A DNA stretch of 64,000 nucleotides, taken from Clostridia bacterium (GTDB taxonomy: Bacteria > Bacillota > Clostridia > UMGS1840 > HGM11507). Within the stretch, counting starts at the first letter, position 1. Each line of letters opens with the position of its first letter. Location: contig JAZOVB010000231.1 in the NCBI GenBank assembly GCA_045658425.1, forward strand, positions 1,284-65,283, in the 5' to 3' direction. This document shows, in pieces, positions 8,163 to 58,172 of the stretch. The position numbers and the translations under genes are program-made. The notes beneath the pieces were generated by a model, which ran no database searches, was not told where the DNA came from, and worked only from the letters and a program-made list of their open reading frames with translations.

Positions 8163-8230
8163 TTATTCTCACTCGGTGCGTTATAACGTGATTTACGTTG
8201 TTTCACCTGATTTTAAGCCGATTTTTTCGC
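8163..8230 (-). pseudogene. relic A of a guaA 3' end (..TE*E-stop; TGG mutated to TGA)
   Basis: Minus strand reads ACC GAG TGA GAA TAA (stop at 8163-8165), one mismatch from the CGAGTGGGAATAA 13-mer at 15994 and 46842. About 70 nt upstream resembles relic B. The terminator lies 14 nt downstream. Confidence 0.5.
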
Positions 8231-8355
8231 TTTCTCCACTTAAAATCTTTCAATTATTTGGTCTTAATTGTTATCTGTTATCATTTTGTTATCATCTATA
8301 TGTTAACATAATATTTGTGGTTTTGCAAGAGTTTAGGAAAGAAAATCCATCTTAC

Positions 8356-9006
8356 TTATCGTTTTAAATATTCCTTATTCACGGCTGCATTTAACACTTG
8401 AACTGAAAACATATCAATGAGCGTAAAAATCTTATCATGTATCTCATTATACCTCTTTTCATCTAAATCAATCGAGGCTAATTTTTCGCCATGAGCTATC
8501 TTATTTCGCATATTTAGCAAAACAGTATCTATAAGTTGAAAATTAGTTTCATACTTATCTGTTTCCAATCCGATTACACTCATAATTTCAACAAAAACTT
8601 CCGAATTCAAATTGCTATTTGTCTTTATAATGCCTGAATATGGGATTTGTGATTTAGAACTATATAAATCAAATATCTCTCCAACGATTTTTGTATGCAA
8701 AATTGATTTTTTAGTTTCGGAAAATAATTTTGTTTTTTCACTAACAGAAAGAGCTAAAAAACTAAATTTCAAATCACCGTATGGTAATTTTAAACTTGAA
8801 ACATACATTAAGTAAAATTCAGCAATATTTTTTATTGCACCTTCCCAGTGAGCGTATAGCAATGTAACCCCCGAACGCAAAGCTGTATCTTTTGCAAAAT
8901 TCCTGGCGCTTTGGATATTTGCCTTTACAGCTGACAATTCGCGCTTTCGCCAACCCATTTCCGCATCAATAGCATCTTGCAAATCATTTATAGTCCTAAT
9001 TTTCAT
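8356..9006 (-). CDS. HEPN-domain protein (MAE_28990/MAE_18760-like predicted nuclease)
   Basis: 216 aa, all-alpha character. Rx4H motif RNKIAH is encoded at 8491-8508. The N-terminal DLQDAIDAEMGWRKRELS text matches this HEPN family as I remember it. The start overlaps the DUF262 stop by 4 nt. Confidence 0.7.
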   Translation of the reverse strand: MKIRTINDLQDAIDAEMGWRKRELSAVKANIQSARNFAKDTALRSGVTLLYAHWEGAIKNIAEFYLMYVSSLKLPYGDLKFSFLALSVSEKTKLFSETKKSILHTKIVGEIFDLYSSKSQIPYSGIIKTNSNLNSEVFVEIMSVIGLETDKYETNFQLIDTVLLNMRNKIAHGEKLASIDLDEKRYNEIHDKIFTLIDMFSVQVLNAAVNKEYLKR

Positions 9007-10106
9007 ACACTGAAATATTCAGCGCCAAACAATGATAAATCTTTATATCTCGGTATAGATCTTACTCCTGGAGTTGTGTTCCTTGTATATACTGCCTCCT
9101 GATATAAATTTCTTATTTTGTCTGTAATCACTTCGTTTCGTTTATCACTCTTTAGTATTTCATTAATATTTACATAAACACCATAAGCAATAGTTTGAAA
9201 TGCTGCAGCCAATACCGGTCCGATATGTTTTTCTCCATTATACTTTTTAAAAGCATCTTCACCTAAAATGCCGTATAACAAATCAAATGTAGCTTTAAAT
9301 CTACTTTCTATTTCATCATAATTCAAATCAAATTCACATAATTTAATTGTTTCTTTGTCCAGTAGTTCTGCAAAATCATTATAAATTCCAATATTATTCC
9401 AATTTATCTTTTCCGCAACAAGCAAACGTATTAACAGTTCCATTCGATATTGTTCGTCTGTTCTTCTGTCAGTTATTGGTAAACAATCTCTAAATGATTG
9501 ATGTCGATCTAATGTGGCAACAAAATCATACAACCTTTTATTAGTCATAATCATCAAGCAATTTCTTACTTCTTGATCACTCAATAACGATCCACCAGTG
9601 TTCAATCTTTGAAACAATTCATATTTTGTATTTGGATCACTTTCTTTCTTCATTATAACAACATCTATTCTAGAACGTTTAAAAAACAACTGCTGTTCTT
9701 TTGTAAAGGATAATTCTGGAACTTTTTCATTATTCCACTGTACACCTGCAAAGGAAGGTAAATAATCTGTTTTTTGCAACGTTAATGGCTCCAACAACTT
9801 ATCATTTTCATCCTTAAAAATACCAACAAATTGAAAAATTGTAGATAGGCGCTGCACACCATCAATAATGTCCCATACCCCATCTTCGTTTTGGCTAACA
9901 AAAATTGATGGTATAGGTATATTGAGCATAATAGATTCTATTAATTTTGTTTTCTGATATTCACTCCATCTAAAGACTCTTTGAAATTCCGGATGTATAT
10001 CCATTTCACCGTCTTTGTATAAATTAATCAATTCCCCAATAGACATTTGATACGAATCTCTAAATATTTTACTTGTTCTTTCCTGAATTTCAGTTTGTAA
10101 AGACAT
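9003..10106 (-). CDS. DUF262 (ParB/Srx-like) domain protein without a DUF1524 nuclease half
   Basis: 367 aa. IHPEFQRVFRWSEYQKTKLIESIMLNIPIPSIFV and IIDGVQRLSTI (DGxQR) are DUF262 hallmarks. No H-N-H/His-Me text in the C-terminal half. RBS AAGGAGG upstream. Confidence 0.8.
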   Translation of the reverse strand: MSLQTEIQERTSKIFRDSYQMSIGELINLYKDGEMDIHPEFQRVFRWSEYQKTKLIESIMLNIPIPSIFVSQNEDGVWDIIDGVQRLSTIFQFVGIFKDENDKLLEPLTLQKTDYLPSFAGVQWNNEKVPELSFTKEQQLFFKRSRIDVVIMKKESDPNTKYELFQRLNTGGSLLSDQEVRNCLMIMTNKRLYDFVATLDRHQSFRDCLPITDRRTDEQYRMELLIRLLVAEKINWNNIGIYNDFAELLDKETIKLCEFDLNYDEIESRFKATFDLLYGILGEDAFKKYNGEKHIGPVLAAAFQTIAYGVYVNINEILKSDKRNEVITDKIRNLYQEAVYTRNTTPGVRSIPRYKDLSLFGAEYFSV

Positions 10107-10118
10107 TTGAATTCCTCC

Positions 10119-11744
10119 TTAACCTCTTCCTAATCGCCGTTTTTGCAACTTTTTCCATATTTGTCTGCACTGTGTACACATTTTTTCGTCAATACCTAGA
10201 ATTTCTTGTAAAACCTCTTTATCAACTATATCTAAAGCAGTTTCTATATCAAGATTATTACGAACAATGTTATCAACACGCGAAAGCAATTCGGATTTTT
10301 TACCAGTATTAATCCCTTCTATTTTAGGAAGCATAATATTTCCCATTTCTCCAGGGAGTATTTCCAGCACGCCGCCCCCATAGCTTCTTCCGCAGATTTC
10401 GGTAAATGCAAAAGATATACTATTGTAATATGACAACAAAACATTATCAGGATCGACACCATCCACAAATTTCATTCGATGCATAGTGTCTGTAGAAACG
10501 GCATCGCAATCATTCAATACAAATTTCGGGTATAAATTACTTCTTCTTAAAAAGAATGCATCCGGAACCCATACAGAAGGTACAATGTACCATCTATCTC
10601 TAATAGAACACTTATATCCTGTATTTTCGCCATTGGCTTCGCCATATTTTATATATTCTATATGCATTTCATCATATTGCTCAATAGGAATATCAGGGAA
10701 AGCCAATAACATAGCTTTTCTTTCATCCGAGATATTTGTATTCCAATCTTCATCAGTAAAATATATTCCACGAGCATGTGAACTACGTCCGATTAATGGA
10801 AGCACAACGCTATCTAGGTTGTATTTATCTACAGTTTCTTTATTTACCGAGAAATAGTCATTATTGCCAGTTGTTATACCCACGTTAATCAAACCATAAT
10901 CAGAAAATTTACAAAAACGAATATCATTTCTAATATCATTTATAAGACTTGATTCTTCTGTTGTTATAAAATACTTTGTCCATTTTTCTGTTGTATGCTG
11001 AAGTTTTTGGTATCCATTTGAATTCAAATCAAGCAAATCAAATCCATTCAAATCTTCCATTTCTATAATACGAATTCCTTTTTCTTCGCCACCTTTTTCA
11101 CCAACAAATACTAATACTTCCTGTTCTATTTCATCAAATACCAACTTTTCAAAGGTAATCAAAGTCATCCGTTGCAAATGATCAGCTAAATATTTTCTTA
11201 AATCTTCTGCATATGCAACTTGTAAAATTTCAGCCGGAATAACAAATGCAATCTTACCATTTTCAGATAACATTTGAACAGATGCTACCAAGAAACCAAC
11301 CCATGCATTTATCAGTTTGTTAGACTTCATACCGTTATCAGTTAATATTTTAGATTGAATTTCTCTTTGGGCTTCTGTTAAGTACTGATAACGGATATAC
11401 GGTGGATTTCCAATAATTAAATCATACTTGATATTATCAGCAGTTCTTTTATAAAATTCGAAAAAATCCTCATTATAGACATTAACATTTTTCTGGTTTT
11501 TAAAGTTAAAATTAACCTTTTGAGCTTCTTCTTTTTCGATTTCTATAGCTGTAATTTCTTGATTATTTGAAATTATGTTTTGCTGATAAAGAGCTTCGAT
11601 AAATACACCATCACCACAACTTGGCTCTAATATAGTATTTATTTTTTCAGACACAAAAAGCTTAACCATTGCATTAGCTAACTTCAATGGCGTATAGTAA
11701 GCTCCTCTTAATTTTTGTTCTGAACTGTTCTCTTTAAGCTTCAT
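10119..11744 (-). CDS. stand-alone N6-adenine DNA methyltransferase (gamma class, Eco57I-M/TaqI-like)
   Basis: 541 aa. AYYTP, motif I EPSCGDGVF, motif IV GNPPYIRYQ, long C-terminal target-recognition region. Confidence 0.85.
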   Translation of the reverse strand: MKLKENSSEQKLRGAYYTPLKLANAMVKLFVSEKINTILEPSCGDGVFIEALYQQNIISNNQEITAIEIEKEEAQKVNFNFKNQKNVNVYNEDFFEFYKRTADNIKYDLIIGNPPYIRYQYLTEAQREIQSKILTDNGMKSNKLINAWVGFLVASVQMLSENGKIAFVIPAEILQVAYAEDLRKYLADHLQRMTLITFEKLVFDEIEQEVLVFVGEKGGEEKGIRIIEMEDLNGFDLLDLNSNGYQKLQHTTEKWTKYFITTEESSLINDIRNDIRFCKFSDYGLINVGITTGNNDYFSVNKETVDKYNLDSVVLPLIGRSSHARGIYFTDEDWNTNISDERKAMLLAFPDIPIEQYDEMHIEYIKYGEANGENTGYKCSIRDRWYIVPSVWVPDAFFLRRSNLYPKFVLNDCDAVSTDTMHRMKFVDGVDPDNVLLSYYNSISFAFTEICGRSYGGGVLEILPGEMGNIMLPKIEGINTGKKSELLSRVDNIVRNNLDIETALDIVDKEVLQEILGIDEKMCTQCRQIWKKLQKRRLGRG

Positions 11745-11756
11745 AATTTACCTCTT

Positions 11757-12914
11757 TCAAAACTGTTGTTTGTAAACTTTTGAAATTAGTTCTTCAATTT
11801 CACAAATCAGATTATCTTTTCTACTTGTCAAAACATTTATGCTATGTCTATCATGAACCTCGCTCAATTGACTATTGATTGCATATACTTCTCGGGTATT
11901 CTCAACAACCTTATTATATAGTATTAGTTGAGCTTCGTCCTCAAAATTTATTTCTATGAATGGCAACTTTGAAAGTACAAACGTACCTCTTGATATAAAT
12001 CCATTTTCAAAGTTACTTCCCATTGTTTCTAATATTTTCTCTGTGTACGGATTTGACATCCACGCCTGAATATATTCAATTGCATACGGGCTTTCTTCTT
12101 TCTTAGAAATCGCGCAATATCCGGCTGTACCGCCAGAGGCAATAAGCATATCTTTGTCATCAAAAGCATACATAGCCTCTCGACTTAATATGCCAACAAT
12201 CAATTTAGGAGTGTTTATAAATGCTGTTAACGCTTGTGTTCTGCCATATTGATACCATGTTTCTGCCGTGGCATTTGGCACATCTCTAACTCCCTTAACA
12301 TCTACACTCTTAGGCACTAATCTTTCGTAATTATCATTTAGATATTCATAAGTTCCTGCATAATCACGCTGCATTACATCTTTAGAAATAAGCTTCCCAT
12401 CGACACCGTACGGAAAAATAATATGTTTATCTGTTTCAAGTATACTATAGGAATTCAATCCTTTTTCTATTCTTTTTGTAGGCTTGAAATATGGTTTTAA
12501 AATAGCTTTTTCTATTTTATACTCTTTATCATTTCTATAGATCATATAACAACTTTCATCTTCACCAATTATTTCATCAGAAGAAAACCAATATATAGGT
12601 TTTGGTCTTTCTGCACTGGTTTGTATTCCGTTAAATATTTCAACATGATTAGTTATTGAAACACCAATTTCTCCAATGTTGTGCAACGAAGACAAAAACT
12701 CTTCATCGGTAGTCAACACCCAAGGTTCAGACGTTATATAATCAGAATTGTATTCCAACTGCCCAACATAACTTTCGGTTAATAATTCTGCTATTTGATT
12801 AACTCTTGTATATTTAAAACTCTCATTATTATTTTTTCTCAACAAAACAATAGAACTATAAATTGTCTTATCTTCAAACAACTGAGCATCGGCAAAATCA
12901 TCCAATTGAACCAT
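11757..12914 (-). CDS. C-terminal (target-recognition) part of the type IIG restriction-modification enzyme, separated by a frameshift
   Basis: 385-aa ORF. Its frame is open upstream of Met1 and there encodes TKEGGYICYIIPNKFFKIKAGKELRKLISTSNL, the conserved methyltransferase segment missing from the upstream ORF. Confidence 0.7.
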   Translation of the reverse strand: MVQLDDFADAQLFEDKTIYSSIVLLRKNNNESFKYTRVNQIAELLTESYVGQLEYNSDYITSEPWVLTTDEEFLSSLHNIGEIGVSITNHVEIFNGIQTSAERPKPIYWFSSDEIIGEDESCYMIYRNDKEYKIEKAILKPYFKPTKRIEKGLNSYSILETDKHIIFPYGVDGKLISKDVMQRDYAGTYEYLNDNYERLVPKSVDVKGVRDVPNATAETWYQYGRTQALTAFINTPKLIVGILSREAMYAFDDKDMLIASGGTAGYCAISKKEESPYAIEYIQAWMSNPYTEKILETMGSNFENGFISRGTFVLSKLPFIEINFEDEAQLILYNKVVENTREVYAINSQLSEVHDRHSINVLTSRKDNLICEIEELISKVYKQQF

Positions 12915-12931
12915 TAAATTGCTAGTAGATA

Positions 12932-14737
12932 TTAATTTTCGTAATTCCTTTCCAGCCTTAATCTTAAAGAATTTATTTGGAATAATATAACAAATATATC
13001 CACCTTCCTTAGTTTTTGAATCGCACGTTCAAGAAAAATGAAATACTTATCAAACTGCATGTATGATGTGCGATATTTAGTTTTATAAGCATCCATTTCT
13101 ACCTTAGGTAACAAATCATGCATTCCTTCGGTATTTACATAAGGTGGATTTCCTATTACAGCATCAAAGATTAAATCGTTCCAATCAAATGGTACAAGTT
13201 TTAGCAACTCATCTATAGTCACTGTCATATCACGTATATCATCATTGCTTACCAATGAATTACCATGTAAAATATTGTTTTCAAGTGCTGGCAAAATGGG
13301 ATTTGTATCAACAACTGACGGAGTCGATTCATCGTCTATCAGTTTAATCAGCAAAGAAAACTTTGAAACTTCCACAGCATGAATATCTATGTCAATACCA
13401 TATATACATGAACATAACAATTCTTTTTTCTCCGTAAAAGGAAGCTTATATCTCCCATTCCCAACTTCGATAAGATGACTTATATCATTACTTATATACC
13501 ACTCTACACAATAAGCCTGTAAATAATCAAATACTTCTTCCAAAAAAACACCTGACCCGCAAGCTATGTCTGCAATTTTTAACGCCTTTATTTCATCGGG
13601 CGTTTTACCTGTACAAAGAGAAGCTAAGGTGGATTTTACAATATATTTAACTATTTCTACCGGAGTAGTTACAACTGATCTATTAACGCATTCATTTTTC
13701 TTGGTTAAAATGACTTGTTCATCGTTAATTTGCAACTGTTCAGTCAAAAACATTTCATATATTTTTCCCAGCATATTAGGTTCAAGTATATTGAATAGAT
13801 AAGGGCTATTGGGGTAATATAACCCTTTTATAATATTTGAAATAACCTCGTTGTCTAAATCGAAGATTATTGACTCACCTGAAAACATTCCAGAATTATA
13901 CTTTCTATCCGCCTCGCGAATAAGTTCTTCTAATTTATTTTTTAACTCGTCTTCATCAATAATCGTTTCGCTTAATTTATGATAAACAGGTAAATTTCTA
14001 TCCTCACATATTCTTAAAAACACTATTTGATTTATAAATGCTTGAACTACATCATTTAATACATCAAGAGAGTGGTATTTTTCATCACTATGATACAGTA
14101 CGTTACTTAAAGCTATTCTCCACTCGTTTATTTGTATTAAAAACCTTTTATCAACAGGCATTCTTTGTGCAACATCTGCCATAAATACATTGTCAAAATA
14201 TGCATCAAAATCACCTGAATATACAACATCTCTTGATATGAGGGAATTTATCTCTTCAATCTTGTTAACATATTCTGAATAATGATAAATTCTATATCTT
14301 GCAACAGCAACATCGTCTTCTTCCTTTGGAATATACGTTGTGTCGTATATTACCAAATATTCAAAATTTGTAAGTATCGCTATCTTGTGACCAGCATTCC
14401 AACCGTATCTTCTTGTTTGCAATGCCGGTTCAGTAATTCTAGATATATCTACAGCAGGTTTCTTTGCTTCTACAAATAACTTAGGAACTCCACACAAAGT
14501 TAATGAATAATCTGGTCTGTCTGTTTCGTTAGTATAATTTTCAGCTATTACTTCTCTATACTGTGGAGCTAATCCCCTTGTGTTTTCTACATCCCATCCA
14601 AGAACACGCAATAATGGATCTATGTATTCAATTCTACACGAATGTTCGTTATAAGCTAAAGCAGGATTTTTATATGATGCTACGTTTGTTTCAAATTGAT
14701 TAACTAAACGTTCCAATTCTCTGATATTAATCGGCAT
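12932..14737 (-). CDS. N-terminal part of the type IIG (Eco57I-like) enzyme: PD-(D/E)xK nuclease plus N6-adenine methyltransferase motifs I and IV
   Basis: DRPDYSL...FVEAKKP nuclease motif, DIACGSGVFL (motif I), GNPPYVN (motif IV). The last ~24 residues (RKVDIFVILFQINSLRLRLERNYEN) are out-of-frame text. Start chosen at ATG 14735-14737 (MPINIRE) with GGAGGAAC upstream; the track ORF extends to 14785. Confidence 0.75.
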   Translation of the reverse strand: MPINIRELERLVNQFETNVASYKNPALAYNEHSCRIEYIDPLLRVLGWDVENTRGLAPQYREVIAENYTNETDRPDYSLTLCGVPKLFVEAKKPAVDISRITEPALQTRRYGWNAGHKIAILTNFEYLVIYDTTYIPKEEDDVAVARYRIYHYSEYVNKIEEINSLISRDVVYSGDFDAYFDNVFMADVAQRMPVDKRFLIQINEWRIALSNVLYHSDEKYHSLDVLNDVVQAFINQIVFLRICEDRNLPVYHKLSETIIDEDELKNKLEELIREADRKYNSGMFSGESIIFDLDNEVISNIIKGLYYPNSPYLFNILEPNMLGKIYEMFLTEQLQINDEQVILTKKNECVNRSVVTTPVEIVKYIVKSTLASLCTGKTPDEIKALKIADIACGSGVFLEEVFDYLQAYCVEWYISNDISHLIEVGNGRYKLPFTEKKELLCSCIYGIDIDIHAVEVSKFSLLIKLIDDESTPSVVDTNPILPALENNILHGNSLVSNDDIRDMTVTIDELLKLVPFDWNDLIFDAVIGNPPYVNTEGMHDLLPKVEMDAYKTKYRTSYMQFDKYFIFLERAIQKLRKVDIFVILFQINSLRLRLERNYEN

Positions 14738-14750
14738 AGCGTTCCTCCAA

Positions 14751-14924
14751 TTAAGTATTTTTTGTTCTATTAAGATACTTATCAATATCTTCTTTCTGAA
14801 TCCTCCATGAATTACCGACTTTGGATGCTATAAGTTCCTTTTTAGATATCAAACGTCTTACTGTTTTATCGCAAACTTTTAAATAATCAGCTGCTTGTGA
14901 TATAGTCAAAATACTATCAGACAT
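14751..14924 (-). CDS. small excisionase-family (MerR-like) HTH DNA-binding protein
   Basis: 57 aa, below the track cutoff. My translation is MSDSILTISQAADYLKVCDKTVRRLISKKELIASKVGNSWRIQKEDIDKYLNRTKNT. RBS AGGAGG lies upstream and it is the first gene of the R-M operon. Confidence 0.65.
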   Translation of the reverse strand: MSDSILTISQAADYLKVCDKTVRRLISKKELIASKVGNSWRIQKEDIDKYLNRTKNT

Positions 14925-15043
14925 AGTTGCATACCTCCTAATTCATTACTTTATATTATAACAAAAAAAGCATGGTAAGTCAAGGACTTTTATGGAATAT
15001 CTTGGACAATTTTGGACTTTGATTGATGCAATTCTGTTTGTTT

Positions 15044-15634
15044 TCATATAAGCACTTCTATATATCTTCTAACCTTTTCTTCAACTCGTGCTAACTTAGA
15101 AAATTCCATAAGCTGATTCAAGTTTTTATCTTTATATCTTGCATATCTTTTATACGCATCTGTAACGATTTGAATGTCCATACAATATCGTTCTTGCAAT
15201 ATATCACACAGAGTATGCTCTATACAATACACATTAACCCTATTTCCAAACGGAGTTTTAACAGAAATAATACCATTTTCATATAGTTCTTTCTTTACTC
15301 TATGAGTGACAACTTCACTTTTAACAGATGAAGTATTATACGAAGCAGGAAATGTCATATCATACCTGCTTGGTGTTCTATTTGAAAAGCCCAAAAGATA
15401 TAATGCTGTACCATTAGAAAAAACACCTTTCTTAAATCTGTTTTGCAAATTAAAAAGCTCATCATCCAGTCTCTCCGGTAATATATAGACACCTCTTGTT
15501 GAGCGTTCCAACATTCCCTTTTCTATCATTACTCGTAAGTAGCCTTTATGTATATTTAATCTATTTAATTCTTCTGTGGTAACAACACCATTATTCAAAT
15601 GAGCAATATCCATAATTTTATCTATATTTGACAT
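15044..15634 (-). CDS. AbiEi-family antitoxin/transcriptional regulator (type IV TA), no cognate AbiEii gene present
   Basis: 196 aa. N-terminal winged-helix text GVVTTEELNRLNIHKGYLRVMIEKGMLERSTRGVY is typical of the AbiEi N-domain. RBS GGAGG upstream. Confidence 0.7.
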   Translation of the reverse strand: MSNIDKIMDIAHLNNGVVTTEELNRLNIHKGYLRVMIEKGMLERSTRGVYILPERLDDELFNLQNRFKKGVFSNGTALYLLGFSNRTPSRYDMTFPASYNTSSVKSEVVTHRVKKELYENGIISVKTPFGNRVNVYCIEHTLCDILQERYCMDIQIVTDAYKRYARYKDKNLNQLMEFSKLARVEEKVRRYIEVLI

Positions 15635-16095: not shown

Positions 16096-16131
16096 TCCGA
16101 AAGTTTTTGTACTCAAAATGTACTCATAAAA

Positions 16132-50527: not shown

Positions 50528-50560
50528 ATAGCAGTAGGTCTCATTTATGCCTACTGCTAT
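50528..50560 (-). terminator. terminator of the J-domain gene
   Basis: ATAGCAGTAGG/CCTACTGCTAT, a perfect 11-bp stem 7 nt after the stop. The A-run at 50519-50525 gives the U-tract. Confidence 0.75.
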
Positions 50561-50566
50561 TTTGAT

Positions 50567-51082
50567 TTATGCGGTTTTATTTTCTAGTTTGTCTGTACCT
50601 TTGCTGTATGCTTTACCGCTTGTACCATACATTTCACGAATTTCGTCAAACTCATAATTTTTACGGCTTTTACATCTGTAATTTTCAGGTTTTAGAAACC
50701 ACGCTGTTTTTTTACTGTGCCATTGAAATTTTAATTCTTTCAACTTATCTTTGTACGCTTTGGTGTTTCCTGTTACCCACACGAAACAACCGATAATTTC
50801 GATTTCTATATCGTCCATTTTCATTAACTCATTTATTAAGTCTTTGAATTGGTCGGATGTTTCTGTTGATGTCTGTTTCGCCGTATAAGTTTCACCATCT
50901 TTCGTTTGATGTATGTCTTTGAGAAATTTAAACAGCTTGTCATATTCATTGTTGACAGCTTTCATTTTCTCGGCATCACCGCCTTTGTCGGGGTGGTGCA
51001 TAAATACCAACTTTCTATATTGCTTTTTTAACTCTTCTAGCGTTTTTGGTGTTGGTGTAAAATAATTTAAAACTTCTCTCAT
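50567..51082 (-). CDS. J-domain protein (DnaJ-like co-chaperone domain only) carried by the mobile element
   Basis: 171 aa. LKKQYRKLVFMHHPDKGGDAEKMKAVNNEYDKLF carries the HPD tripeptide. The C-terminal half has no Zn-finger or CTD of true DnaJ. Confidence 0.8.
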   Translation of the reverse strand: MREVLNYFTPTPKTLEELKKQYRKLVFMHHPDKGGDAEKMKAVNNEYDKLFKFLKDIHQTKDGETYTAKQTSTETSDQFKDLINELMKMDDIEIEIIGCFVWVTGNTKAYKDKLKELKFQWHSKKTAWFLKPENYRCKSRKNYEFDEIREMYGTSGKAYSKGTDKLENKTA

Positions 51083-51092
51083 TTCAATTCCT

Positions 51093-51288
51093 CCTATACT
51101 TTGAATTTTTAAATATTAAGTTGTCAATGTTCGTAGCAATATAAAAACACGATCAAAAAAGACAAGTCAACAGAAACATGGAATAACGAAGCAAAGCGAG
51201 TATATGCCGTGAAAGTCTGTTTACTTGGCTTTTTGCCGTGTTATCTTGCAAGCAGAACATGACACAATAGTTAAAAATTGAGTATAGG
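51093..51288. other. ~200-nt imperfect hairpin covering the whole leader of the J-domain gene; its base abuts the SD
   Basis: Paired segments include CCTATACT (51093-51100)/AGTATAGG (51281-51288), AATTTTTAA/TTAAAAATT, TTGTCAATGTTC/GAACATGACACAA, AACACG/CGTGTT, CAAAAA/TTTTTG, CAAGT/ACTTG and AACAGA/TCTGTT. The SD GGAGG is the complement of 51090-51094. Confidence 0.6.
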
Positions 51289-51324
51289 AAATTATGATAA
51301 GTTTTGTTTTTATACAAACAAAAA

Positions 51325-51347
51325 CAGGCGTATAAATTAAACGCCTG
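51325..51347 (-). terminator. terminator of the M48 protease gene
   Basis: CAGGCGT/ACGCCTG stem 18 nt after the stop, followed on the minus strand by TTTTTGTTTG. Confidence 0.6.
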
Positions 51348-51364
51348 CTTTCGATAGTTTATAT

Positions 51365-52270
51365 TTATGCCCTACACATATTTTCAAGAGCTTCTATTCT
51401 AAAAGCTGTTTTCGGGTGTGATGATTGCAATTTTTCAAGCAAATTTCTCTTGTCTGATATTTCCATATCATAAAATTTATACAAGGCTGACAATAAGGCT
51501 TCGCCGTACCCTAATTCAAAAGCTACTTTGTCTGCTCTGTATTCTTCTTTACGACTTGTAGAAGATACTATAATTGTTAGAAACATCATTGCATATTTTA
51601 ACCCAATACTTAAAATGTTTTTCAAAAAGCCTATAAGACTTCCAAAGAAAGAGTTATCGCCTAGCATAATTTGTAACATCTGCAACACCTTTACAAAAAT
51701 CATTACACCCCCAAAGTACACATTAGAGGCTAGCGATACAAAAACTGACACCTGCCCGTCTCCGTTTATAATATGACCGATTTCGTGAGATATAACAGCC
51801 TCTATTTCTTCGTCATTCATTGTTTCCATTAGTCCACGAGTAACTGCTATTGTATGTCTGCCAATGGCAAAAGCATTTACATTTACGCTGTCTACAATAT
51901 ATAATTTTAATTCATAATCTATCATTTTGCTATATGCTGTGCCACGCTCTTTTACACTTTCAAATATATTTAAAAGCCTTTCTTTTTCCGTATCTGTCGC
52001 AATATGTCTCACATCATATATCGCCCTCAAAATATACTCGGGCAAATTTGTCAAACAAAGTATTATAAGCAATATGTAAATCATAGCCAAAGTTATATTT
52101 ACACTTATAGGTAATTGAATATTAAACCAAAACAAAAAATAACTTGCTATTAGTAACAATAGTAACCGAGGTCTAACGGCAAAAATTGTAAATGGGTTTG
52201 GCTCAGGTTTACCTCTGTGCTCTTCTGGAATAAGTAAAACTTTTTCTAAATTTTGTATAATTTTTGACAT
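51365..52270 (-). CDS. M48-family (HtpX-like) membrane zinc metalloprotease
   Basis: 301 aa. HEIGHIINGD (HExxH), N-terminal and central TM segments, C-terminal EYRADK. Confidence 0.8.
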   Translation of the reverse strand: MSKIIQNLEKVLLIPEEHRGKPEPNPFTIFAVRPRLLLLLIASYFLFWFNIQLPISVNITLAMIYILLIILCLTNLPEYILRAIYDVRHIATDTEKERLLNIFESVKERGTAYSKMIDYELKLYIVDSVNVNAFAIGRHTIAVTRGLMETMNDEEIEAVISHEIGHIINGDGQVSVFVSLASNVYFGGVMIFVKVLQMLQIMLGDNSFFGSLIGFLKNILSIGLKYAMMFLTIIVSSTSRKEEYRADKVAFELGYGEALLSALYKFYDMEISDKRNLLEKLQSSHPKTAFRIEALENMCRA

Positions 52271-52285: not shown

Positions 52286-53530
52286 TTAAAATGGTTTTAT
52301 AACTTTTATTTTTTCACATCTCCCGTCATCCCTTGACAGAAAAACGCCCTCGCCTTTTTTAAACGATTTGATTTCGTCAGGGTGTACAATAAATTCTCGT
52401 ACTCGTTTTGCTGTCCCCATACCTGTTTCTTCTCTTTGATTTAACTGATATGTTAACTGCATCTTTTCATGTGTTCCCAAGGTTTTCGACCATTCCTCAG
52501 CACTCCTAAAACTGTTTTGCCTCATAATGACATAATTGTTGCAATTTTCTATAATCTGATGTTTAAACGCTTCACCTACTGCTGATTCAAGGTCCGCAAG
52601 ACTTTGCGTTGCACATACACAAGTAACACCTGCACTTCTGCTCTTGTTGATTAAGTCAATAAGCACAGAAGAAGCATATACATTTATTTCGTCAAAGACA
52701 AAGAAACTACGATGGTTGCTGTTGAATAATTGGCTCACAGCTTTTTTGCTGTCTATCAAAATTAAACGCCCCAAAGCCTGTGATGTTTCAGGGTAGATTA
52801 GTGGGTTTAAAATAAAAAGTATTACCGCACCAGTTTTCAACGCTGAATATATATCTATTCCATTTTCGTCAAAGATTTCTCCCATCTCACTTTCTGCAAT
52901 TGTTGCAAATCGTGCTGAAGCCTGTTCTGTTATTTTTCCACTTGCTTTTATTAAATGTAAATTTTCAATATGATTTTCTTTTGTTATCAAACTATTTTTT
53001 TGTAAAACGGCTGATAAACTTTCAAAATTATCTGCTGACATATTTTGAATTATTGATTTGAAAGACAACGGAATTTCTGCAATATTCATTAGCTTTACAA
53101 CTCGCTGTATGTATCTTTCTGTATTGGTTTTATAATGTGGTTCGCTCCATTCCGTCATGTTTATCAACATATCTTTTGCAACGGTTTCTGTTGCATTTTT
53201 AAGTGGGTTATACTTTGCAGATTTTGTAGGCTCGTTCATATTGATTACATAAAGCGGTCTGTTATGCCTTTCACAAAATGCCTTTGTGATTTCATACATA
53301 GAACCTTGTCCTGTATCTCCTTTTTCGTCAACTAACAACAATCCTATACCTTTTTCGATGCTGTGCAAAATAAAATTTGATAATAATACAGTTTTACCCG
53401 CTCCCGTTGTACCTGATACAAAAATGTGTTTTGCGTTATCAGGACAATATATAGCCTTTTTTAATCTTGTATAACCAATTAAAGTTGAATTTTCTTTATT
53501 AACAGGACTACTCATATAATCTACCCCCAT
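52286..53530 (-). CDS. TraG/TraD/VirD4-like coupling-protein ATPase domain (soluble part)
   Basis: 414 aa. Walker A VSGTTGAGKTV, Walker B FFVFDEINVYA, CATQSLADL. No TM segments of its own. Confidence 0.65.
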   Translation of the reverse strand: MGVDYMSSPVNKENSTLIGYTRLKKAIYCPDNAKHIFVSGTTGAGKTVLLSNFILHSIEKGIGLLLVDEKGDTGQGSMYEITKAFCERHNRPLYVINMNEPTKSAKYNPLKNATETVAKDMLINMTEWSEPHYKTNTERYIQRVVKLMNIAEIPLSFKSIIQNMSADNFESLSAVLQKNSLITKENHIENLHLIKASGKITEQASARFATIAESEMGEIFDENGIDIYSALKTGAVILFILNPLIYPETSQALGRLILIDSKKAVSQLFNSNHRSFFVFDEINVYASSVLIDLINKSRSAGVTCVCATQSLADLESAVGEAFKHQIIENCNNYVIMRQNSFRSAEEWSKTLGTHEKMQLTYQLNQREETGMGTAKRVREFIVHPDEIKSFKKGEGVFLSRDDGRCEKIKVIKPF

Positions 53531-53948
53531 TTGCTGTAAATTTCCGCTCTAATGACATAATTCCCGCTTGTTCTTTTTTGCGGTTGTACCTCATACGCTT
53601 TACTGTGTATGAGGCAACTGCAAAAGATACCGCCGTTAATATAAACCAGCTTGTCAAACTATATTGACTATAAACCGATATATTAAAATTATGGTTTAAA
53701 AGCCCTTTGACAAGAGCAACGGCAACTTGTGTTGTTTCTTCTAAAAACACCCCCATTTTAGTACATAATATTACAAACAACACAACACAAGGAAACAACA
53801 CAAAGTTTTCTTTTCTGTCTGTTCTCAACATCAAAAAAACAAACAAAATATTAAATGGTAATATCGGTAAACATATCAATATTGCAAGTGCCGATATTAT
53901 CACATCAAAAACAGTAATCTGCTTTTGTTCTTTAAACTCTTCTGACAT
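53508..53948 (-). CDS. small integral membrane protein (possible membrane anchor of the coupling ATPase)
   Basis: 146 aa with 3-4 hydrophobic helices. Its 3' end overlaps the ATPase gene start by 23 nt. Confidence 0.5.
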   Translation of the reverse strand: MSEEFKEQKQITVFDVIISALAILICLPILPFNILFVFLMLRTDRKENFVLFPCVVLFVILCTKMGVFLEETTQVAVALVKGLLNHNFNISVYSQYSLTSWFILTAVSFAVASYTVKRMRYNRKKEQAGIMSLERKFTANGGRLYE

Positions 53949-54558
53949 ATTCCATCACCTTTTCTAACGGCGTTATTTTTACGCCATATTTTTCACCTAT
54001 AACTTTTACATTATCAACAACCTTTTGTCTGTCGCTTGGAATAAACCAAAGCTGAAAATCAAAAATTTTGTAATTATTCTTTATATTCTTTTCAAGAGTT
54101 ATTGGCTTTTTTGCTGACAACTCAATTTCTACGCAATAGATTTTATAGTCTTTTGTATATTCAAAGTCGGGAAAGTGTTTAGGATTACCAAACCCCGCTT
54201 TATGTTTCATTTCTCGTTCAGTTGTAATGCTTGATTTTTCTACACCCTCATTATTTATCAAATATATAGCGGTATCAATTACAGCTATATCATGCGTTAT
54301 CTGTTCTATTCTTACATTCGGGGTGTAATATTCCAAGTCAAGCAATCTTTCTGCTCTTTTTGTAACAAAATAAAGTCTTGGAACGCCATACAAAAAATGC
54401 TTTCTTTCTATATAGCCTGCTTCTATCAGCTTTTTTAATCTCCTATCACATGCACGCTGACCGCTAAAACCACATAAGACTTTTATTTGTCTTGAAAGTA
54501 AAAAACGCCATTTTTGAATTTCTTTAATAATAGCTATATCTCTTTCCATTAAAACCAT
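53932..54558 (-). CDS. replication-relaxation (Replic_Relax) family protein
   Basis: 208 aa. RDIAIIKEIQKWRFLLSRQIKVLCGFSGQRACDRRLKKLIEAGYIER is the winged-helix N-terminus typical of the family. Confidence 0.65.
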   Translation of the reverse strand: MVLMERDIAIIKEIQKWRFLLSRQIKVLCGFSGQRACDRRLKKLIEAGYIERKHFLYGVPRLYFVTKRAERLLDLEYYTPNVRIEQITHDIAVIDTAIYLINNEGVEKSSITTEREMKHKAGFGNPKHFPDFEYTKDYKIYCVEIELSAKKPITLEKNIKNNYKIFDFQLWFIPSDRQKVVDNVKVIGEKYGVKITPLEKVMEYVRRV

Positions 54559-54824: not shown

Positions 54825-54913
54825 AATTATAGACATAATTCAAGTCAACTAAAATATTTATAAATCACCAAAAGATATTAATAGTAAATTATAATTAACG
54901 AAAGGAATTGAAA

Positions 54914-55573
54914 ATGGATACCAAACTCACAGCAAAACGGCTTAAAAAACTAAGAAAAGAAGCAGGGTATTCTCACGAACGCTTAGCTGCAACTCTAATA
55001 GAAAAATATAACATAAAGATTACGCCCGCATCATTAAAAAAATATGAAATTTCAGAACAACCACATAGCAATTATGGTGCTGTAAAAGGTATGCGTATTG
55101 AGTATCTATATATGTTTGCCGATTTTTACAATGTATCAAGTGACTATATTTTAGGTTTTACAAATTCTACAAATAGAAATATAACAGCAAAACACATTAC
55201 AGATAAAACAGGCCTTTCAAGTAAAGCAGTTGAAAATTTAGAAATGCTATATAAAACAGAAGTTGGGTGCATACCGCCTTATTTAGTTATTGACTATATG
55301 CTATCAAATCAAGAGTTTATAGAAAACTACCCCAATACAATAATTAGCTATTATCTTGCTAAAAAAATGAGTGATAAAAAATTTAACACTTCAACACCTG
55401 AATATTATAATACCCAATGGAACATTGAAAGCATAGAATTCAAAAAATATTTATCAATACAACGAATGGAACGCTTAATTGATAACTTTTATAATAATTA
55501 TGTTAATTATGATATTGAAGAGGAACTATCGTTATTGAGAAAGGATGAAGAAGATGGCAATGAAAATGAATAG
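54914..55573 (+). CDS. XRE-family HTH regulator (element repressor-like)
   Basis: LTAKRLKKLRKEAGYSHERLAATL plus the following helix. ATG 54914 follows AAAGGA; the track starts at TTG 54908. Confidence 0.7.
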   Translation: MDTKLTAKRLKKLRKEAGYSHERLAATLIEKYNIKITPASLKKYEISEQPHSNYGAVKGMRIEYLYMFADFYNVSSDYILGFTNSTNRNITAKHITDKTGLSSKAVENLEMLYKTEVGCIPPYLVIDYMLSNQEFIENYPNTIISYYLAKKMSDKKFNTSTPEYYNTQWNIESIEFKKYLSIQRMERLIDNFYNNYVNYDIEEELSLLRKDEEDGNENE

Positions 55574-57005
55574 CGGTTTGCCGTCAGGCGTTTCTGCTGT
55601 AAAAGACCGCCCCGGTCTTTATCGTATCAGATGTGCAGTACACGGCAAAAATTACAGCGAATATTACAGAACAGAAGAAATAAGCAAAAAGAAACTGCAA
55701 AGTGAACTGCAAAAGGTTGTTGACTCATTCAAGGAACGAATTGAGTGTGGAATGCTTAAAAATAATGACATAAGCGAAAAAAGTACATTTGAGCAAGCTG
55801 TTGAATGGTTTGTTAATATGCGAAAACTCAACATTCGGGAAAGCACACAACTAACCGACAAATTTATTTTTGAGCATTATCTTATCCCCCGCATTGGCAA
55901 GTATAAACTTAAAGAAATAACCTCGCCTATGGTTACAAAGCTATTAGCAGAGCTGTTGGAAAAAGGCGGTGGCGGGCGGGCTACATATAATGCAAAACCC
56001 GAATTTATAGAATTAATGCACGAAAGAAAACCCAAAAGAACTGACGGCGGTTTTAATCTTGTTGCTCGGGAAATAGGTATAAATGAAGATACTACATTTA
56101 TAAGAGTAAGAAAAGGCGGGAACTGTAACGAAGATGTTGCAAAAAGAGTTGCTAAATATTACGGCGTATCACTTGGCACAGCCTTTGACAAAAAAGAAGA
56201 TATAAAACCGTTGTCGGCTTCTTATGTTTCAAAAATCACTTACACGCTGTCAGCCCTTTTCACAGCTTGCGTTAAAAATGGCGTTTTACTTACTAACCCT
56301 GTTGCCAATGCGACAAAACCCCGCATTGGCGAAATGGATATACCCCCATATCTTGATAATACAACTATACCAATATTCTTAAATGCACTAAATGAAATCA
56401 ATATTGATAATTCAATATGCGTTTCACTGATACTGATGTTAATGCTTGGTTTGAGAAGCGGGGAAGCTCGGGCGTTGCGTTGGGTAGATGTTGACTTTAA
56501 TTCAAATGTTGTCAGCATTGAAAAGAATGTAGGCGATACATTCAACGGGTTAGCCTTAACCGATTTGAAAACAAAAAGGTCAAGGCGTAAATTACCACTT
56601 TCGCCGTTACTAAAAGATATATTATTAAACCATAAAAATATATTAGATAAAAAAGCCGACCAACATGGAAAAACTTGGAACAAAAACGGTGTCATATGTC
56701 CTAACGCAATGGGCGGGCTAATGGAAAAGGCTGTGCCGAATAAGGCGATAAAAAAGATATTGAACAAAAATAAAGAATTACCCCAAGGGCTTCATGCTCA
56801 TTCTTTACGGCATAGTTTTGTATCTTTGCTAATTTCAAACGGTCTTGATGTTGTAAATGTTGCCTCACTTGCGGGTGATACAATAGAAATTATAAGCAAA
56901 CATTATGCCCATAGTTTTGCAGAGCGTAGAGCCGCCGCAATGAATATTGTCGGCGACTCGTTCGCACAACTTAATAACAGCAACAATTATTTAAAAATTT
57001 CATAA
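55545..57005 (+). CDS. int: tyrosine site-specific integrase with an ~80-aa insertion in the core-binding region
   Basis: 486 aa. LRSGEARALRW (Arg I), HSLRHSF (H-x-x-R), ISKHYAH (catalytic Tyr). N-terminal arm-binding-like GLYRIRCAVHGKNYSEYY. Confidence 0.9.
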   Translation: MKKMAMKMNSGLPSGVSAVKDRPGLYRIRCAVHGKNYSEYYRTEEISKKKLQSELQKVVDSFKERIECGMLKNNDISEKSTFEQAVEWFVNMRKLNIRESTQLTDKFIFEHYLIPRIGKYKLKEITSPMVTKLLAELLEKGGGGRATYNAKPEFIELMHERKPKRTDGGFNLVAREIGINEDTTFIRVRKGGNCNEDVAKRVAKYYGVSLGTAFDKKEDIKPLSASYVSKITYTLSALFTACVKNGVLLTNPVANATKPRIGEMDIPPYLDNTTIPIFLNALNEINIDNSICVSLILMLMLGLRSGEARALRWVDVDFNSNVVSIEKNVGDTFNGLALTDLKTKRSRRKLPLSPLLKDILLNHKNILDKKADQHGKTWNKNGVICPNAMGGLMEKAVPNKAIKKILNKNKELPQGLHAHSLRHSFVSLLISNGLDVVNVASLAGDTIEIISKHYAHSFAERRAAAMNIVGDSFAQLNNSNNYLKIS

Positions 57006-57046: not shown

Positions 57047-57070
57047 TGTAGTCAATTTTGTGGTCAAAAA
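57047..57070 (+). repeat. attR core (direct repeat)
   Basis: TGTAGTCAATTTTGTGGTCAAAAA. An inverted partial copy GACCACAA lies 29 nt to the right. Confidence 0.7.
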
Positions 57071-57128
57071 GTTGTAAAAAGTAGCTAAAATTTAGACCAC
57101 AACGCAAAAAGTTACAAAAAGCAAAAAC

Positions 57129-57161
57129 GCCGTAAAGCCTTATTTTGCAAGGGTTTACGGC
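57129..57161 (-). terminator. terminator of guaA
   Basis: GCCGTAAA/TTTACGGC stem with extra partial pairs. The minus strand continues GTTTTTGC. Lies 30 nt after the guaA stop. Confidence 0.65.
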
Positions 57162-57191
57162 ATTTTATTAAAATTTACAAAACCTCAAATT

Positions 57192-58172
57192 CTACTCCCA
57201 CTCAATAGTTCCGATTGGCTTAGGTGTAAGGTCTAAGCATACACGATTGATACCGTCAACCTCTTTGGTTATACGGTCAGTTATCTTATGAAGTACTGCA
57301 TAAGGGATTTCCTCAATAGTTGCACTCATAGCGTCTTTAGTATTGACTGCACGAATTATTGCGGGCCAACCTTCATATCTTTTATCGTCTTTTACTCCTA
57401 CTGATTTAAAGTCGGGAACAGCAATGAAATACTGCCATACTTTTTTGGAAAGACCGCAGATTTCAAATTCTTCTCTTAAGATTGCGTCGGCTTCTCTTAG
57501 AGCATGTAATCTGTCACGGGTAATTGCGCCAAGACAACGAACACCAAGTCCGGGTCCCGGGAACGGCTGACGGTCTACCATTTCATCAGGAAGACCTAAT
57601 GCTCTACCCACTTCTCTTACTTCGTCTTTATATAGAAGTTTAACCGGTTCTACAAGTTCAAGCTCCATTTCTTCCGGTAAGCCACCAACATTATGATGAG
57701 CCTTTACTCCGTCACTTTCCAATATATCGGGATAGATTGTACCCTGAGCAAGGAATTTAACATCTGTTAATTTTTTAGCCTCTTCGTTAAATACTTCGAT
57801 AAATTCTGCACCTATAATTTTTCTTTTTGTTTCAGGTTCAGCAACGTCCTTTAATTTATCTAAAAATCTGTCAGTTGCATCAATATATATAAGATTTGCA
57901 TCAAGGCCTTTTTCAAAAACCTCAATAACCTGCTCACTCTCGCCCTTTCTCATAAGCCCATGATTAACATGAACACAAACAAGCTGTTTGCCGATTGCTT
58001 TAATTAAAAGTGCTGCAACAACGGAGGAATCAACACCGCCTGATAAAGCAAGTAATACTTTTTTATCTCCTACCTGCTTCCTTACAAGTTCAACTTGTTC
58101 TTCAATAAATGCATTTGCCAATTCTTTAGTTGTGATACGTTCCATTGTATCCGGTCTTTTGTTTGAATCCAT
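57192..58172 (-). CDS. guaA: GMP synthase, ATP-pyrophosphatase + dimerisation domains only (no glutamine amidotransferase domain)
   Basis: 326 aa. LALSGGVDSSV P-loop, FPGPGLGVR, ends GTIEWE. Own RBS GGAGGAAT. Only 96 nt of non-coding DNA separates it from cysK upstream. Confidence 0.9.
   Translation of the reverse strand: MDSNKRPDTMERITTKELANAFIEEQVELVRKQVGDKKVLLALSGGVDSSVVAALLIKAIGKQLVCVHVNHGLMRKGESEQVIEVFEKGLDANLIYIDATDRFLDKLKDVAEPETKRKIIGAEFIEVFNEEAKKLTDVKFLAQGTIYPDILESDGVKAHHNVGGLPEEMELELVEPVKLLYKDEVREVGRALGLPDEMVDRQPFPGPGLGVRCLGAITRDRLHALREADAILREEFEICGLSKKVWQYFIAVPDFKSVGVKDDKRYEGWPAIIRAVNTKDAMSATIEEIPYAVLHKITDRITKEVDGINRVCLDLTPKPIGTIEWE

Follow-up and report, generated by a model that had tools for sequence, protein, structure and literature searches.

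A probable accretion array of mobile elements, with a chromosomal-type segment inside it, at the guaA 3' end of an uncultured ruminant-gut Oscillospiraceae bacterium

The 49 kb that separate a MocR-type regulator gene from guaA in an uncultured Oscillospiraceae/Acutalibacteraceae bacterium of the ruminant gut are very probably an accretion array built up at the attachment site in the guaA 3' end, a middle segment of chromosomal DNA included. The window analysed here, meaning the whole stretch of 64,000 nucleotides, comes from a metagenome-assembled contig. We observed directly the layout of the array, its direct repeats, sequence homology with guaA junctions of other genomes, and an empty site in a relative. 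Gene calls on both sides of the array agree with the housekeeping flanks of the original prediction (gap, IMPDH, dusB, ECF-S and the MocR-type gene on the left; cysK, pgsA-like, pfkA, yebC, asd and dapA on the right). GC content separates the blocks weakly, at 0.30-0.34 inside the array against 0.35-0.39 at the flanks.

The array is anchored by the target gene, its attachment (att) core, three extra core copies termed relics A, B and C, and the hairpins beside them:

57192..58172, minus strand: guaA (GMP synthase), the target gene (Pfam PF00958 and PF02540)
57192..57203, minus strand: att core at the guaA end, GAGTGGGAGTAG, read as attL of element E3
57126..57164, minus strand: hairpin apparently supplied by E3, now terminating guaA (z -2.7)
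46831..46842, minus strand: relic C, core GAGTGGGAATAA, read as attR of E3 and an earlier guaA end
46698..46729, minus strand: terminator hairpin 3' of relic C (z -6.1)
15994..16005, minus strand: relic B, core GAGTGGGAATAA
15946..15979, minus strand: terminator hairpin 3' of relic B (z -3.2)
8163..8174, minus strand: relic A, core GAGTGAGAATAA (TGG to TGA), read as the oldest displaced guaA end
8116..8157, no strand: hairpin separating the MocR stop from relic A, taken to be the original bidirectional terminator (z -6.7)
7010..8095, plus strand: MocR-type regulator gene, original convergent neighbour of guaA

Translation confirmed that guaA (57192..58172, minus strand) ends in GTIEWE-stop. 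Its product is the 326-aa ATP-pyrophosphatase/GMP_synt_C form, and comparison with 80 relatives (82-90% amino acid identity, all lengths equal) indicates that this synthetase-only form is normal for the clade. The 12-nt core consists of the last three guaA codons plus the stop. GAGTGGGAATAA is the consensus guaA 3' end in this Oscillospiraceae clade, and the 13-mer CGAGTGGGAATAA is the commonest guaA end among 80 related species (26 of the 80 exact). The core at 57192..57203 departs from the clade consensus ATAA in its final 4 nt; the guaA DNA end reads TGAGTGGGAGTAG and has only GAGTGGGA.TA. in common with the relics. All three extra copies lie on the guaA strand and all are intergenic. The exact 13-mer described at 15994-16006 was recovered there, while the one placed at 46842-46854 proved to be 11 nt off and belongs at 46831-46843; the one-change copy (TGG to TGA) at 8163-8175 on the minus strand was found as described. 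A stem-loop had been claimed 3' of guaA and of each relic, and a stable hairpin is indeed present at four of four sites (folding z -2.7 to -6.7). The similarity of about 70 nt claimed upstream of relics A and B shrank to about 30 nt, with an alignment score of 33 against 18.9 +/- 2.9 that was reached by one of 300 shuffles. The reading of the relics as displaced guaA ends or att cores is supported, since the 13-mer is the commonest guaA end of the clade and the same 12-mer flanks the inserts of relatives.

Those inserts, 0.8-10 kb long, were seen in ten relatives (L001, L008, L011, L035, L037, L038, L054, L061, L176 and L183), L038 being a tandem array in its own right, and in 10 related loci a second core lies 0.7-9.8 kb downstream of guaA. 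Tandem arm repeats stand at a fixed 55-60 nt after the stop in 25 of 73 loci, and a tyrosine recombinase is found within 8 kb of guaA in 16 of 48. About a third of the clade's species carry an element at the guaA site, with many arm-repeat and integrase types; in E3 and in the relatives' elements a single arm word is used, the same at both ends.

An empty site had been predicted to place the MocR-type gene convergent with guaA within about 100 bp, and L083 has exactly this arrangement, with MocR 47 nt from the guaA end. The order in L083 is MocR, hairpin and then ..GAACAATTGAATGGGAATAA on the opposite strand, a layout matched by the 8116..8157 hairpin. L083 is the sole relative with an unoccupied site (79% nucleotide identity), and its contig stops 20 nt into guaA. 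The other MocR relatives L081, L082 and L084 have different neighbours, and most MocR relatives adjoin tRNAs and a cysK-like gene, or another convergent gene. Among the relatives searched, none is a conspecific genome whose site is empty or partly filled. A GTDB scan with GuaA returned other species only, at no more than 90% amino acid identity and with downstream synteny not conserved. Exact-match searches with the GuaA, MocR, CysK and integrase proteins of the window gave no hits. The P0245 GuaA matches (98% amino acid identity) were considered as conspecific and rejected, their DNA identity being just 86-87%. Separately, P0241 proved to be a divergent guaA with an internal duplication.

The element nearest guaA, E3 (46.84-57.19 kb), is an intact 10.3-kb element, and its genes predict a mobilizable type:

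57048..57067, minus strand: arm-type repeat of E3 on the attL side, TTGACCACAAAATTGACTAC (present twice in the window, 0.02 copies expected)
55545..57005, plus strand: tyrosine integrase of 486 aa, convergent with guaA (PF00589 and PF14659)
54908..55573, plus strand: 221-aa protein, possible regulator or excision factor (weak RstR-like HTH, E 3.5e-4, below the curated cut-off)
53932..54558, minus strand: Replic_Relax-like protein, matched by PF13814 at E 2.3e-4 (below the curated cut-off); a candidate for a relaxase or a replication protein
52286..53530, minus strand: type IV coupling protein, TraG/TraD/VirD4-like (PF10412, PF12696 and PF02534; NCBIfam TraD, CD1115-family)
47495..52270, minus strand: cargo, namely an M48 peptidase, a DnaJ-domain protein, an unknown protein and a WG-repeat/Cu_amine_oxidN1 wall protein
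47300..47356, no strand: oriT candidate, a GC-rich hairpin with a 23-bp stem (z -9.4)
46906..46925, minus strand: arm-type repeat of E3 on the attR side, TTGACCACAAATTTGACTAC

Both ends of E3 carry the matching 20-nt arm repeats, and its attP junction is predicted as ..ATAATACCGC-GAGTGGGA.TA.-AATTTGAGG... E3 was not seen as a circle or in excised form. The integrase obtained only generic Xer-like matches in NCBIfam, shares just 25-29% identity with the other guaA-site integrases compared, and had no close relative in plasmids, phages or viral contigs. With regard to an integrative and mobilizable element (IME), the integrase and coupling protein are clear and the relaxase match falls below the curated cut-off; VirB4 and other type IV secretion genes are absent from all E3 ORFs by Pfam and NCBIfam. 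The oriT candidate sits in the 650-nt non-coding distal end of E3 and matched no Rfam family.

Beyond E3, the window holds older remnants with other arm-repeat words:

46698..46772, minus strand: attL remnant of a second, GGCAAC-type element, with arms TGGCAACAATTTGGCAAC (46755-46772) and the terminator 46698-46729
46421..46665, minus strand: D2, C-terminal fragment of a 226-aa ORF of guaA-site elements
16132..22963, minus strand: integrase-less block with a GDSL lipase, an M23 peptidase, the candidate defence pair PDC-M12 A/B and a DUF4297-HerA defence system
16109..16126, minus strand: attR-type arm repeats TGAGTACATTTTGAGTAC of a third element type (same word in attL of L002 and L187)
16027-16054, minus strand: AAATCACG repeats, after the TGAGTACATTTTGAGTAC arms
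15762..15930, minus strand: D2', a shorter piece of the 226-aa ORF of D2
8356..15634, minus strand: E1 remnant (CIME-like) with defence-type genes
8270..8296, minus strand: attR-type arm repeats GATGATAACAAAATGATAACAGATAAC of a fourth element type (same word in attL of L006, L007, L015 and L035)

The GGCAAC arms lie 55-60 nt past the stop, the placing common to the 25 of 73 relatives. The DNA after relic C has homologues immediately past the guaA stop in more than 10 other genomes; these include L086, L001, L018, L032, L039, L059, L063, L065, L070 and L074. The 226-aa ORF of D2 is full-length inside the L015 element, and fragments of it directly follow guaA in L033, L185 and L177-181. D2 was also considered as an RNA feature and ruled out: Rfam and tRNA scans at the relics and at D2 gave no match, and D2 is a protein-coding fragment. 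The E1 remnant encodes an orphan AbiEi, a type II methylase, an NsnA-like DUF262 protein and a HEPN protein, together with a type IIG restriction-modification gene split into two ORFs. The 8.2-16.0 kb block keeps cores A and B, lies farthest from guaA and has no integrase or relaxase among its ORFs, as a CIME or decayed element does; the lack of integrases in the older blocks is consistent with decay. As anticipated, gene content places the intact element nearest guaA and the decayed ones distally. The split type IIG gene, the orphan AbiEi and the mutated core A are all distal, a gradient in line with the rule, published for such arrays, that decay is most advanced in the elements remotest from the target gene (PMC7563491). 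Four distinct arm-repeat types in the window require at least four elements, so the three insertions originally proposed are too few.

The centre of the array is of another kind:

45694..46404, minus strand: NlpC/P60 (CHAP) wall hydrolase gene, N-terminally truncated, holding repeat D1 (46089-46388)
23473..45617, minus strand: 22.1-kb chromosomal-type segment with a carbohydrate-utilisation locus, recognised by identity to relatives' contigs
23071..23484, minus strand: second NlpC/P60-type fragment, without the catalytic domain, holding repeat D1' (23085-23384)

The segment carries RpiR, phosphodiesterase, Mem_trans, PHP, SBP, AraC, CBM and GH20 genes as well as two heparinase II/III-like genes and two SLH proteins. 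Positions 41600-45617 share 99.4% nucleotide identity with L166-L175, and positions 23473-30568 share 94-95% with L161/L166; the housekeeping flanks of the window reach 83-93% identity to relatives, against 94-99.4% for the segment. Its homologues sit between galK and PP-loop ATPase-rplM-rpsI in the relatives' contigs, and homology to these contigs breaks sharply at 45617 and at 23473. By sequence identity, the segment appears to be a copy of a chromosomal region and not element DNA. Two earlier claims fail here: 16.0-46.8 kb is not a single insertion, since 22 kb of it (23473-45617) is DNA found from galK to rplM-rpsI in relatives, and the relics do not enclose accessory genes alone, as RpiR..PHP and GH20 are core-chromosome genes in relatives. 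D1 and D1' are direct repeats of about 320 nt that are 86% identical, and because the two NlpC/P60 fragments bracket the segment, it looks captured or translocated. A conjugative element may have captured it and brought it from a related lineage, for example through a single crossover of a circular intermediate. We tentatively propose that such an element picked up 22 kb of core chromosome in a related lineage of gut Oscillospiraceae and carried it across a species boundary into the guaA island seen here, with a duplicated NlpC/P60 fragment remaining on each side. The stretch would begin at the RpiR promoter, end at the GH20 terminator and comprise a heparinase-II/III, GH20 and SLH glycan-utilisation locus; if true, this is ICE-mediated movement of a glycan locus between Firmicutes species, caught in the act.

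The sequence of insertions and the place of the crossover, as given next, are inferred. Tyrosine-integrase elements would recombine within the 12-bp core GAGTGGGAATAA, each arrival bringing a new EWE-stop together with a terminator and arm-type repeats of its own, and the previous guaA end would be pushed out to the far junction at each insertion. A GATAAC-arm element probably came first, its remnant being 8.2-16.0 kb with the integrase half deleted. At least two more may have followed, of which one would survive solely as a GAGTAC-arm attR at 16.1 kb and the other solely as a GGCAAC-arm attL at 46.7 kb; the core that lay between the two has presumably been lost. The last would be the intact E3 (46.84-57.19 kb), the likely source of the present ..GAGTAG guaA end.

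Several other explanations were weighed against this history. One could take the relics for coincidental matches, or for copies of a dispersed repeat that has nothing to do with guaA, given their length of only 12-13 nt and the absence of GuaA-coding similarity beyond it. This view is refuted: CGAGTGGGAATAA has 3 matches in the window, all on the minus strand, against 0.05 expected by chance, its sequence is that of the consensus guaA end, inserts at guaA in many relatives are bounded by these direct repeats, and every relic shows attL or attR arm geometry. We regard its probability as negligible. Exactly three insertions, with 16.0-46.8 kb as one guaA-targeting ICE and the polysaccharide locus as ordinary cargo, would account for a block bounded by cores B and C that holds ICE-type gene fragments (NlpC/P60 and M23). 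This is improbable, as the ends of the block differ in arm type (GGCAAC attL against GAGTAC attR), its 22-kb core lies among housekeeping genes (galK ... rplM-rpsI) in two lineages with 88.5% identity to each other, and the NlpC/P60 gene is present in two differently truncated copies.

The remaining alternatives accept the array and differ on how the middle segment came to lie in it. An assembly chimera is suggested by the metagenome-assembled source and by strikingly discordant identities, 99.4% for the middle and 83-93% for the flanks; it is nevertheless very improbable, because both junctions are in unique sequence, the ICE fragments of the window share no stretch with the galK or PP-loop contexts by which an assembler could have been misled, and two independent false joins would be required. 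The segment might instead have moved within one genome, through recombination between ICE copies at two loci and re-insertion of the circle at the guaA island with no interspecies transfer, and the D1/D1' direct repeats bracket it as a Campbell-type insertion would leave them. We consider this unlikely, although it deserves more weight than a chimera: the 99.4% match is to contigs from samples whose best GuaA is only 94% identical in protein and 83% in DNA. That disparity suggests a foreign source, indirectly, since the locus is a recombination mosaic across lineages. Capture from a related lineage is the reading we prefer for the segment, and tentatively so.

The guaA gene is listed as a target of both ICEs and IMEs (PMC4701971, PMC7563491), and Tn5801, Tn6647 and the composite Tn6648 occupy it in Staphylococcus and Enterococcus (PMC4844618; bioRxiv 10.64898/2026.03.26.714560). 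The 11-bp direct repeat GAGTGGGAATA of Tn5801/Tn6647 is identical to the core in the window, a tyrosine integrase beside guaA is shared with all three, and tandem composites are known among them. As at other guaA 3'-end elements, core repeats stand at the boundaries, E3 encodes a tyrosine integrase and an unoccupied site exists (L083). Unlike Tn5801, E3 is a 10-kb mobilizable-type element in an uncultured ruminant-gut Oscillospiraceae host. Pfam and NCBIfam searches of the E3 ORFs found no Tn916-type conjugation module (VirB4/Orf16, MobT Orf20, FtsK-like Orf21, Orf13-15), the transfer matches being the coupling protein and the weak Replic_Relax, with only NlpC/P60 fragments elsewhere; no ORF of 8-57 kb has a tet(M) domain. 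The suggested Tn5801-type identity is therefore not supported: only the target core is common, there being no Tn916-like module, no tet(M) and no close relative of the integrase in the plasmids and phages searched. E3 may also be compared with Firmicutes IMEs that have their own coupling protein: it has an integrase, a VirD4/TraD-like protein and a putative non-canonical relaxase (below threshold). GIflu-1 of Vibrio fluvialis, a genomic island adjoining guaA with attL and attR GAGTGGGAATAAT (PMC13418153), differs in its proteobacterial host and in being a single element and a resistance island.

A further parallel is with streptococci, where ICEs, IMEs and CIMEs form accretion arrays at housekeeping-gene 3' ends (fda, tRNA-Lys, rpsI, rpmG and guaA) in which decayed integrase-less elements retain their att sites and the most decayed lie farthest from the target (PMC7563491). 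Like those arrays, the window has tandem elements with att direct repeats between them; unlike them, it has lost at least one internal core and embeds a 22-kb core-chromosome piece between element fragments. Our results extend the guaA 3'-end hotspot, with the Tn5801 core, to uncultured ruminant-gut Oscillospiraceae and offer a clear worked example of how arrays become fixed as islands carrying defence and metabolic genes. The segment embedded in this one hints that arrays may also fix foreign core-genome DNA, including a polysaccharide-utilisation locus. Current understanding is not overturned by this array, which is a well-known kind of hotspot at the guaA end; the unusual part is the 22 kb of chromosomal DNA embedded in it.

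The guaA gene (57192..58172, minus strand) had been read as terminating in GTIEWE-stop, and its translation bears this out; at the DNA level the gene ends in ATTGAGTGGGAGTAG. The copies of the 13-mer CGAGTGGGAATAA are also present on the minus strand. Exact copies lie at 15994-16006 (relic B) and 46831-46843 (relic C, 11 nt away from the originally proposed 46842-46854), and a copy with a single change, TGG to TGA, lies at 8163-8175 (relic A). Three copies were thus observed against 0.05 expected from shuffles. Because the guaA DNA terminates in ATTGAGTGGGAGTAG, the gene and the relics have only GAGTGGGA.TA. in common. The similarity upstream of relics A and B, thought to cover about 70 nt, spans 30 nt, with a score reached by 1 of 300 shuffles. 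Genes found on both sides of the block agree with the housekeeping flanks described for it, and each of the four sites is followed by a stable hairpin, as had been claimed.

Hairpins following the guaA end and the three relics, in the guaA (minus-strand) direction
8116-8157, after relic A, z-score -6.7
15946-15979, after relic B, z-score -3.2
46698-46729, after relic C, z-score -6.1
57126-57164, after the guaA end, z-score -2.7

When species-representative genomes were scanned with GuaA, 80 Oscillospiraceae/Acutalibacteraceae MAGs matched at 82-90% amino acid identity, most of them from ruminant guts. Their guaA genes end in ATCGAGTGGGAATAA in 26/80 and in ATTGAGTGGGAATAA in 20/80, and the 13-mer is therefore the commonest guaA end of the clade. 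In ten related loci (L001, L008, L011, L035, L037, L038, L054, L061, L176 and L183) a second GAGTGGGAATAA occurs 0.7-9.8 kb downstream of guaA, and these guaA-adjacent stretches are inserts flanked by direct repeats of 12 bp. One of these loci, L038, is a tandem array too, since the junction of another element follows its second core. Junctions on the guaA side run in the order core, terminator and two tandem 7-9-nt arm repeats, which start 55-60 nt past the guaA stop in 25 of 73 loci (4 in shuffles); the arm word recurs at far-side junctions, where it precedes the second core by about 100-130 nt. A tyrosine recombinase lies within 8 kb of guaA in 16 of the 48 loci with enough sequence. Less than 2.5 kb follows guaA in 32 of the 80 loci, and in several the contig stops just past the gene; such early ends fit assembly breaks at a region that varies or is repeated. 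The window and the 80 related species all encode a 326-aa synthetase-only GuaA that lacks the glutamine amidotransferase domain. The usual 510-aa form occurs in more distant relatives (L086), and the same att core serves both. The 1514-nt locus L191 holds a divergent guaA with an internally duplicated PP-loop region (about 100 aa) and, at the contig end, a second, convergent ..TIEWE-stop end.

The element nearest guaA (E3, 46.84-57.19 kb) is intact. It encodes a tyrosine integrase of 486 aa, whose gene is convergent with guaA, an HTH-like protein, a VirD4/TraD-like coupling protein, a weak match to Replic_Relax, and a cargo of M48 peptidase, DnaJ-domain protein and wall protein. The 20-nt arm TTGACCACAAAWTTGACTAC is found at both ends (57048-57067 and 46906-46925; 0.02 expected). 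Since VirB4 and other type IV secretion genes are absent among its genes, E3 looks like an IME. The present guaA end, ..GGGAGTAG, differs from the ..GGGAATAA kept in relic C, which suggests that E3 supplied the last bases of guaA by strand exchange inside GAGTGGGA. A GC-rich hairpin (47300-47356; 23-bp stem, DNA fold z -9.4) in the 650 non-coding nucleotides at the distal end of E3 matches no Rfam family and could be the oriT of the element.

Remains of older elements were recognized at the relics. Past relic C come TGGCAACAATTTGGCAAC (46755-46772) and then the terminator at 46698-46729. This flank is 79-83% identical to the DNA directly past the guaA stop in L086, L018, L039, L059, L063, L065 and L074, and also matches L001, L032 and L070. 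It is the junction on the guaA side of a second element, of GGCAAC type, which E3 displaced and which has lost its integrase. Next past the flank is D2 (46421-46665), which preserves the C-terminal part of a 226-aa ORF. The ORF is full-length in the L015 element (order xre, xis, int, relaxase, ORF, AbiEi/AbiEii), where it occupies 17125-17805, and its protein looks secreted. Truncated copies occur just past guaA in L033, L177-181 and L185, the last being the closest flank relative (93% nucleotide identity). Relic B is preceded by the arm word TGAGTACATTTTGAGTAC (16109-16126), which L002 and L187 carry at their junctions on the guaA side, and followed by its terminator, a shorter fragment D2' (15762-15930) and AbiEi. 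Ahead of relic A lies the arm word GATGATAACAAAATGATAACAGATAAC (8270-8296), as in the elements of L006, L007, L015 and L035. Four arm types are present; at least four elements are therefore needed in place of the three insertions originally proposed.

The original prediction also placed the MocR gene (7010..8095, plus strand) convergent with guaA at an empty site. A MocR scan of metagenomes found relatives of up to 88% amino acid identity, most with downstream neighbours that differ from those of the window. The arrangement was seen in one relative only, L083 (86% amino acid, 79% nucleotide identity), in which a hairpin comes after the MocR stop and precedes opposite-strand ..GAACAATTGAATGGGAATAA, reading GTIEWE-stop. 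The MocR stop and this guaA end are 47 nt apart; the contig finishes there, with only 20 nt of guaA in it. The L083 arrangement supports relic A and its hairpin being the original guaA end and a bidirectional terminator.

The 16.0-46.8 kb block does not hold up as one insertion. Its two ends are unlike, so it is composite with an internal core lost, and two-thirds of it corresponds to chromosomal DNA that lies between galK and rplM-rpsI in relatives. Homologues of its GH20 and RpiR were traced to contigs L161 and L166-L175. L166-L168 have the order EPSP synthase, rubrerythrin, galK / RpiR, phosphodiesterase, Mem_trans, PHP, GH20 / PP-loop ATPase, rplM, rpsI; the galK / RpiR side is also seen in L169-L175 and the GH20 / PP-loop-rplM side in L161. 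As the latter junction is common to L161 and L166, which are just 88.5% identical, this context is old. The window is 99.4% identical to these contigs over 41600-45617 and 94-95% over 23473-30568, and homology breaks off sharply at 45617 and 23473. The dapA-asd-yebC-pfkA-pgsA-cysK-guaA flank keeps its synteny in the closest contigs found, at 83% (L177-183), 86% (L184) and 93% (L185) DNA identity. The 22-kb segment is therefore far nearer to another population (94-99.4%) than the flanks of the window are (83-93%). In the JGI samples with the 99.4% RpiR contigs, the best GuaA reaches at most 94% amino acid identity to that of the window.

With a MAG contig of 77,447 nt as the source, this pattern might reflect a chimeric assembly; however, both junctions lie in unique sequence and the two contexts have no common stretch, which makes a chimera unlikely. 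Capture of chromosomal DNA, the reading we prefer for two-thirds of the block, may have left its trace in the bracketing repeats. Direct D1 copies, 86% identical and derived from the N-terminal part of an NlpC/P60-type gene, lie at 46089-46388 and 23085-23384. The right gene copy keeps the catalytic domain and is truncated at its 5' end, and the left keeps extra upstream codons and lacks the catalytic domain. A circular intermediate inserted by a single crossover would leave such bracketing.

The segment locus is a recombination mosaic (78-100% identity per 500 nt). Its 16-kb heparinase/SLH/CBM/AraC/SBP core (25616-41599) is cleanly missing from some near-identical contigs (L166-L168), with an 8-nt junction overlap, and present in L161 and L171, a presence/absence polymorphism of a glycan locus. 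Precisely at the left breakpoint of the 22-kb segment, the GH20 terminator hairpin (23473-23502) has its loop in the opposite orientation to that in L161 and L166. The phosphodiesterase gene beside RpiR is frameshifted (84 + 192 aa) in L166 (8506-9296), L167 and L171 and intact (262 aa) in the window.

The blocks at 8.2-16.0 and 16.1-21.2 kb lack integrases. The former carries NsnA-like DUF262 and HEPN proteins, a type II methylase, an orphan AbiEi and a split type IIG enzyme, and the latter a DUF4297-HerA system and the candidate pair PDC-M12 A/B. The type IIG gene (11757-14785) is probably a pseudogene; its two ORFs match positions 9-590 and 623-995 of one 1011-position PADLOC profile.

Comparative evidence from related loci thus upholds the core idea of serial insertion at the guaA 3' end. 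Integration at guaA, accretion, distal decay and defence cargo are established biology, and the captured chromosomal segment is the sole feature meriting further attention. In streptococci, guaA is among the ICE/IME targets (PMC4701971, PMC7563491), and their accretion arrays follow the rule seen here, with the most decayed element farthest from the target (PMC7563491): the intact element adjoins guaA and the most decayed, with a mutated core, lies farthest off. The att of the Vibrio island GIflu-1 is GAGTGGGAATAAT (PMC13418153), and Tn5801-like islands have 11-bp direct repeats (PMC4844618). The proposed Tn5801-type identity is not sustained: the target core alone is common to Tn5801 and the elements of the window.
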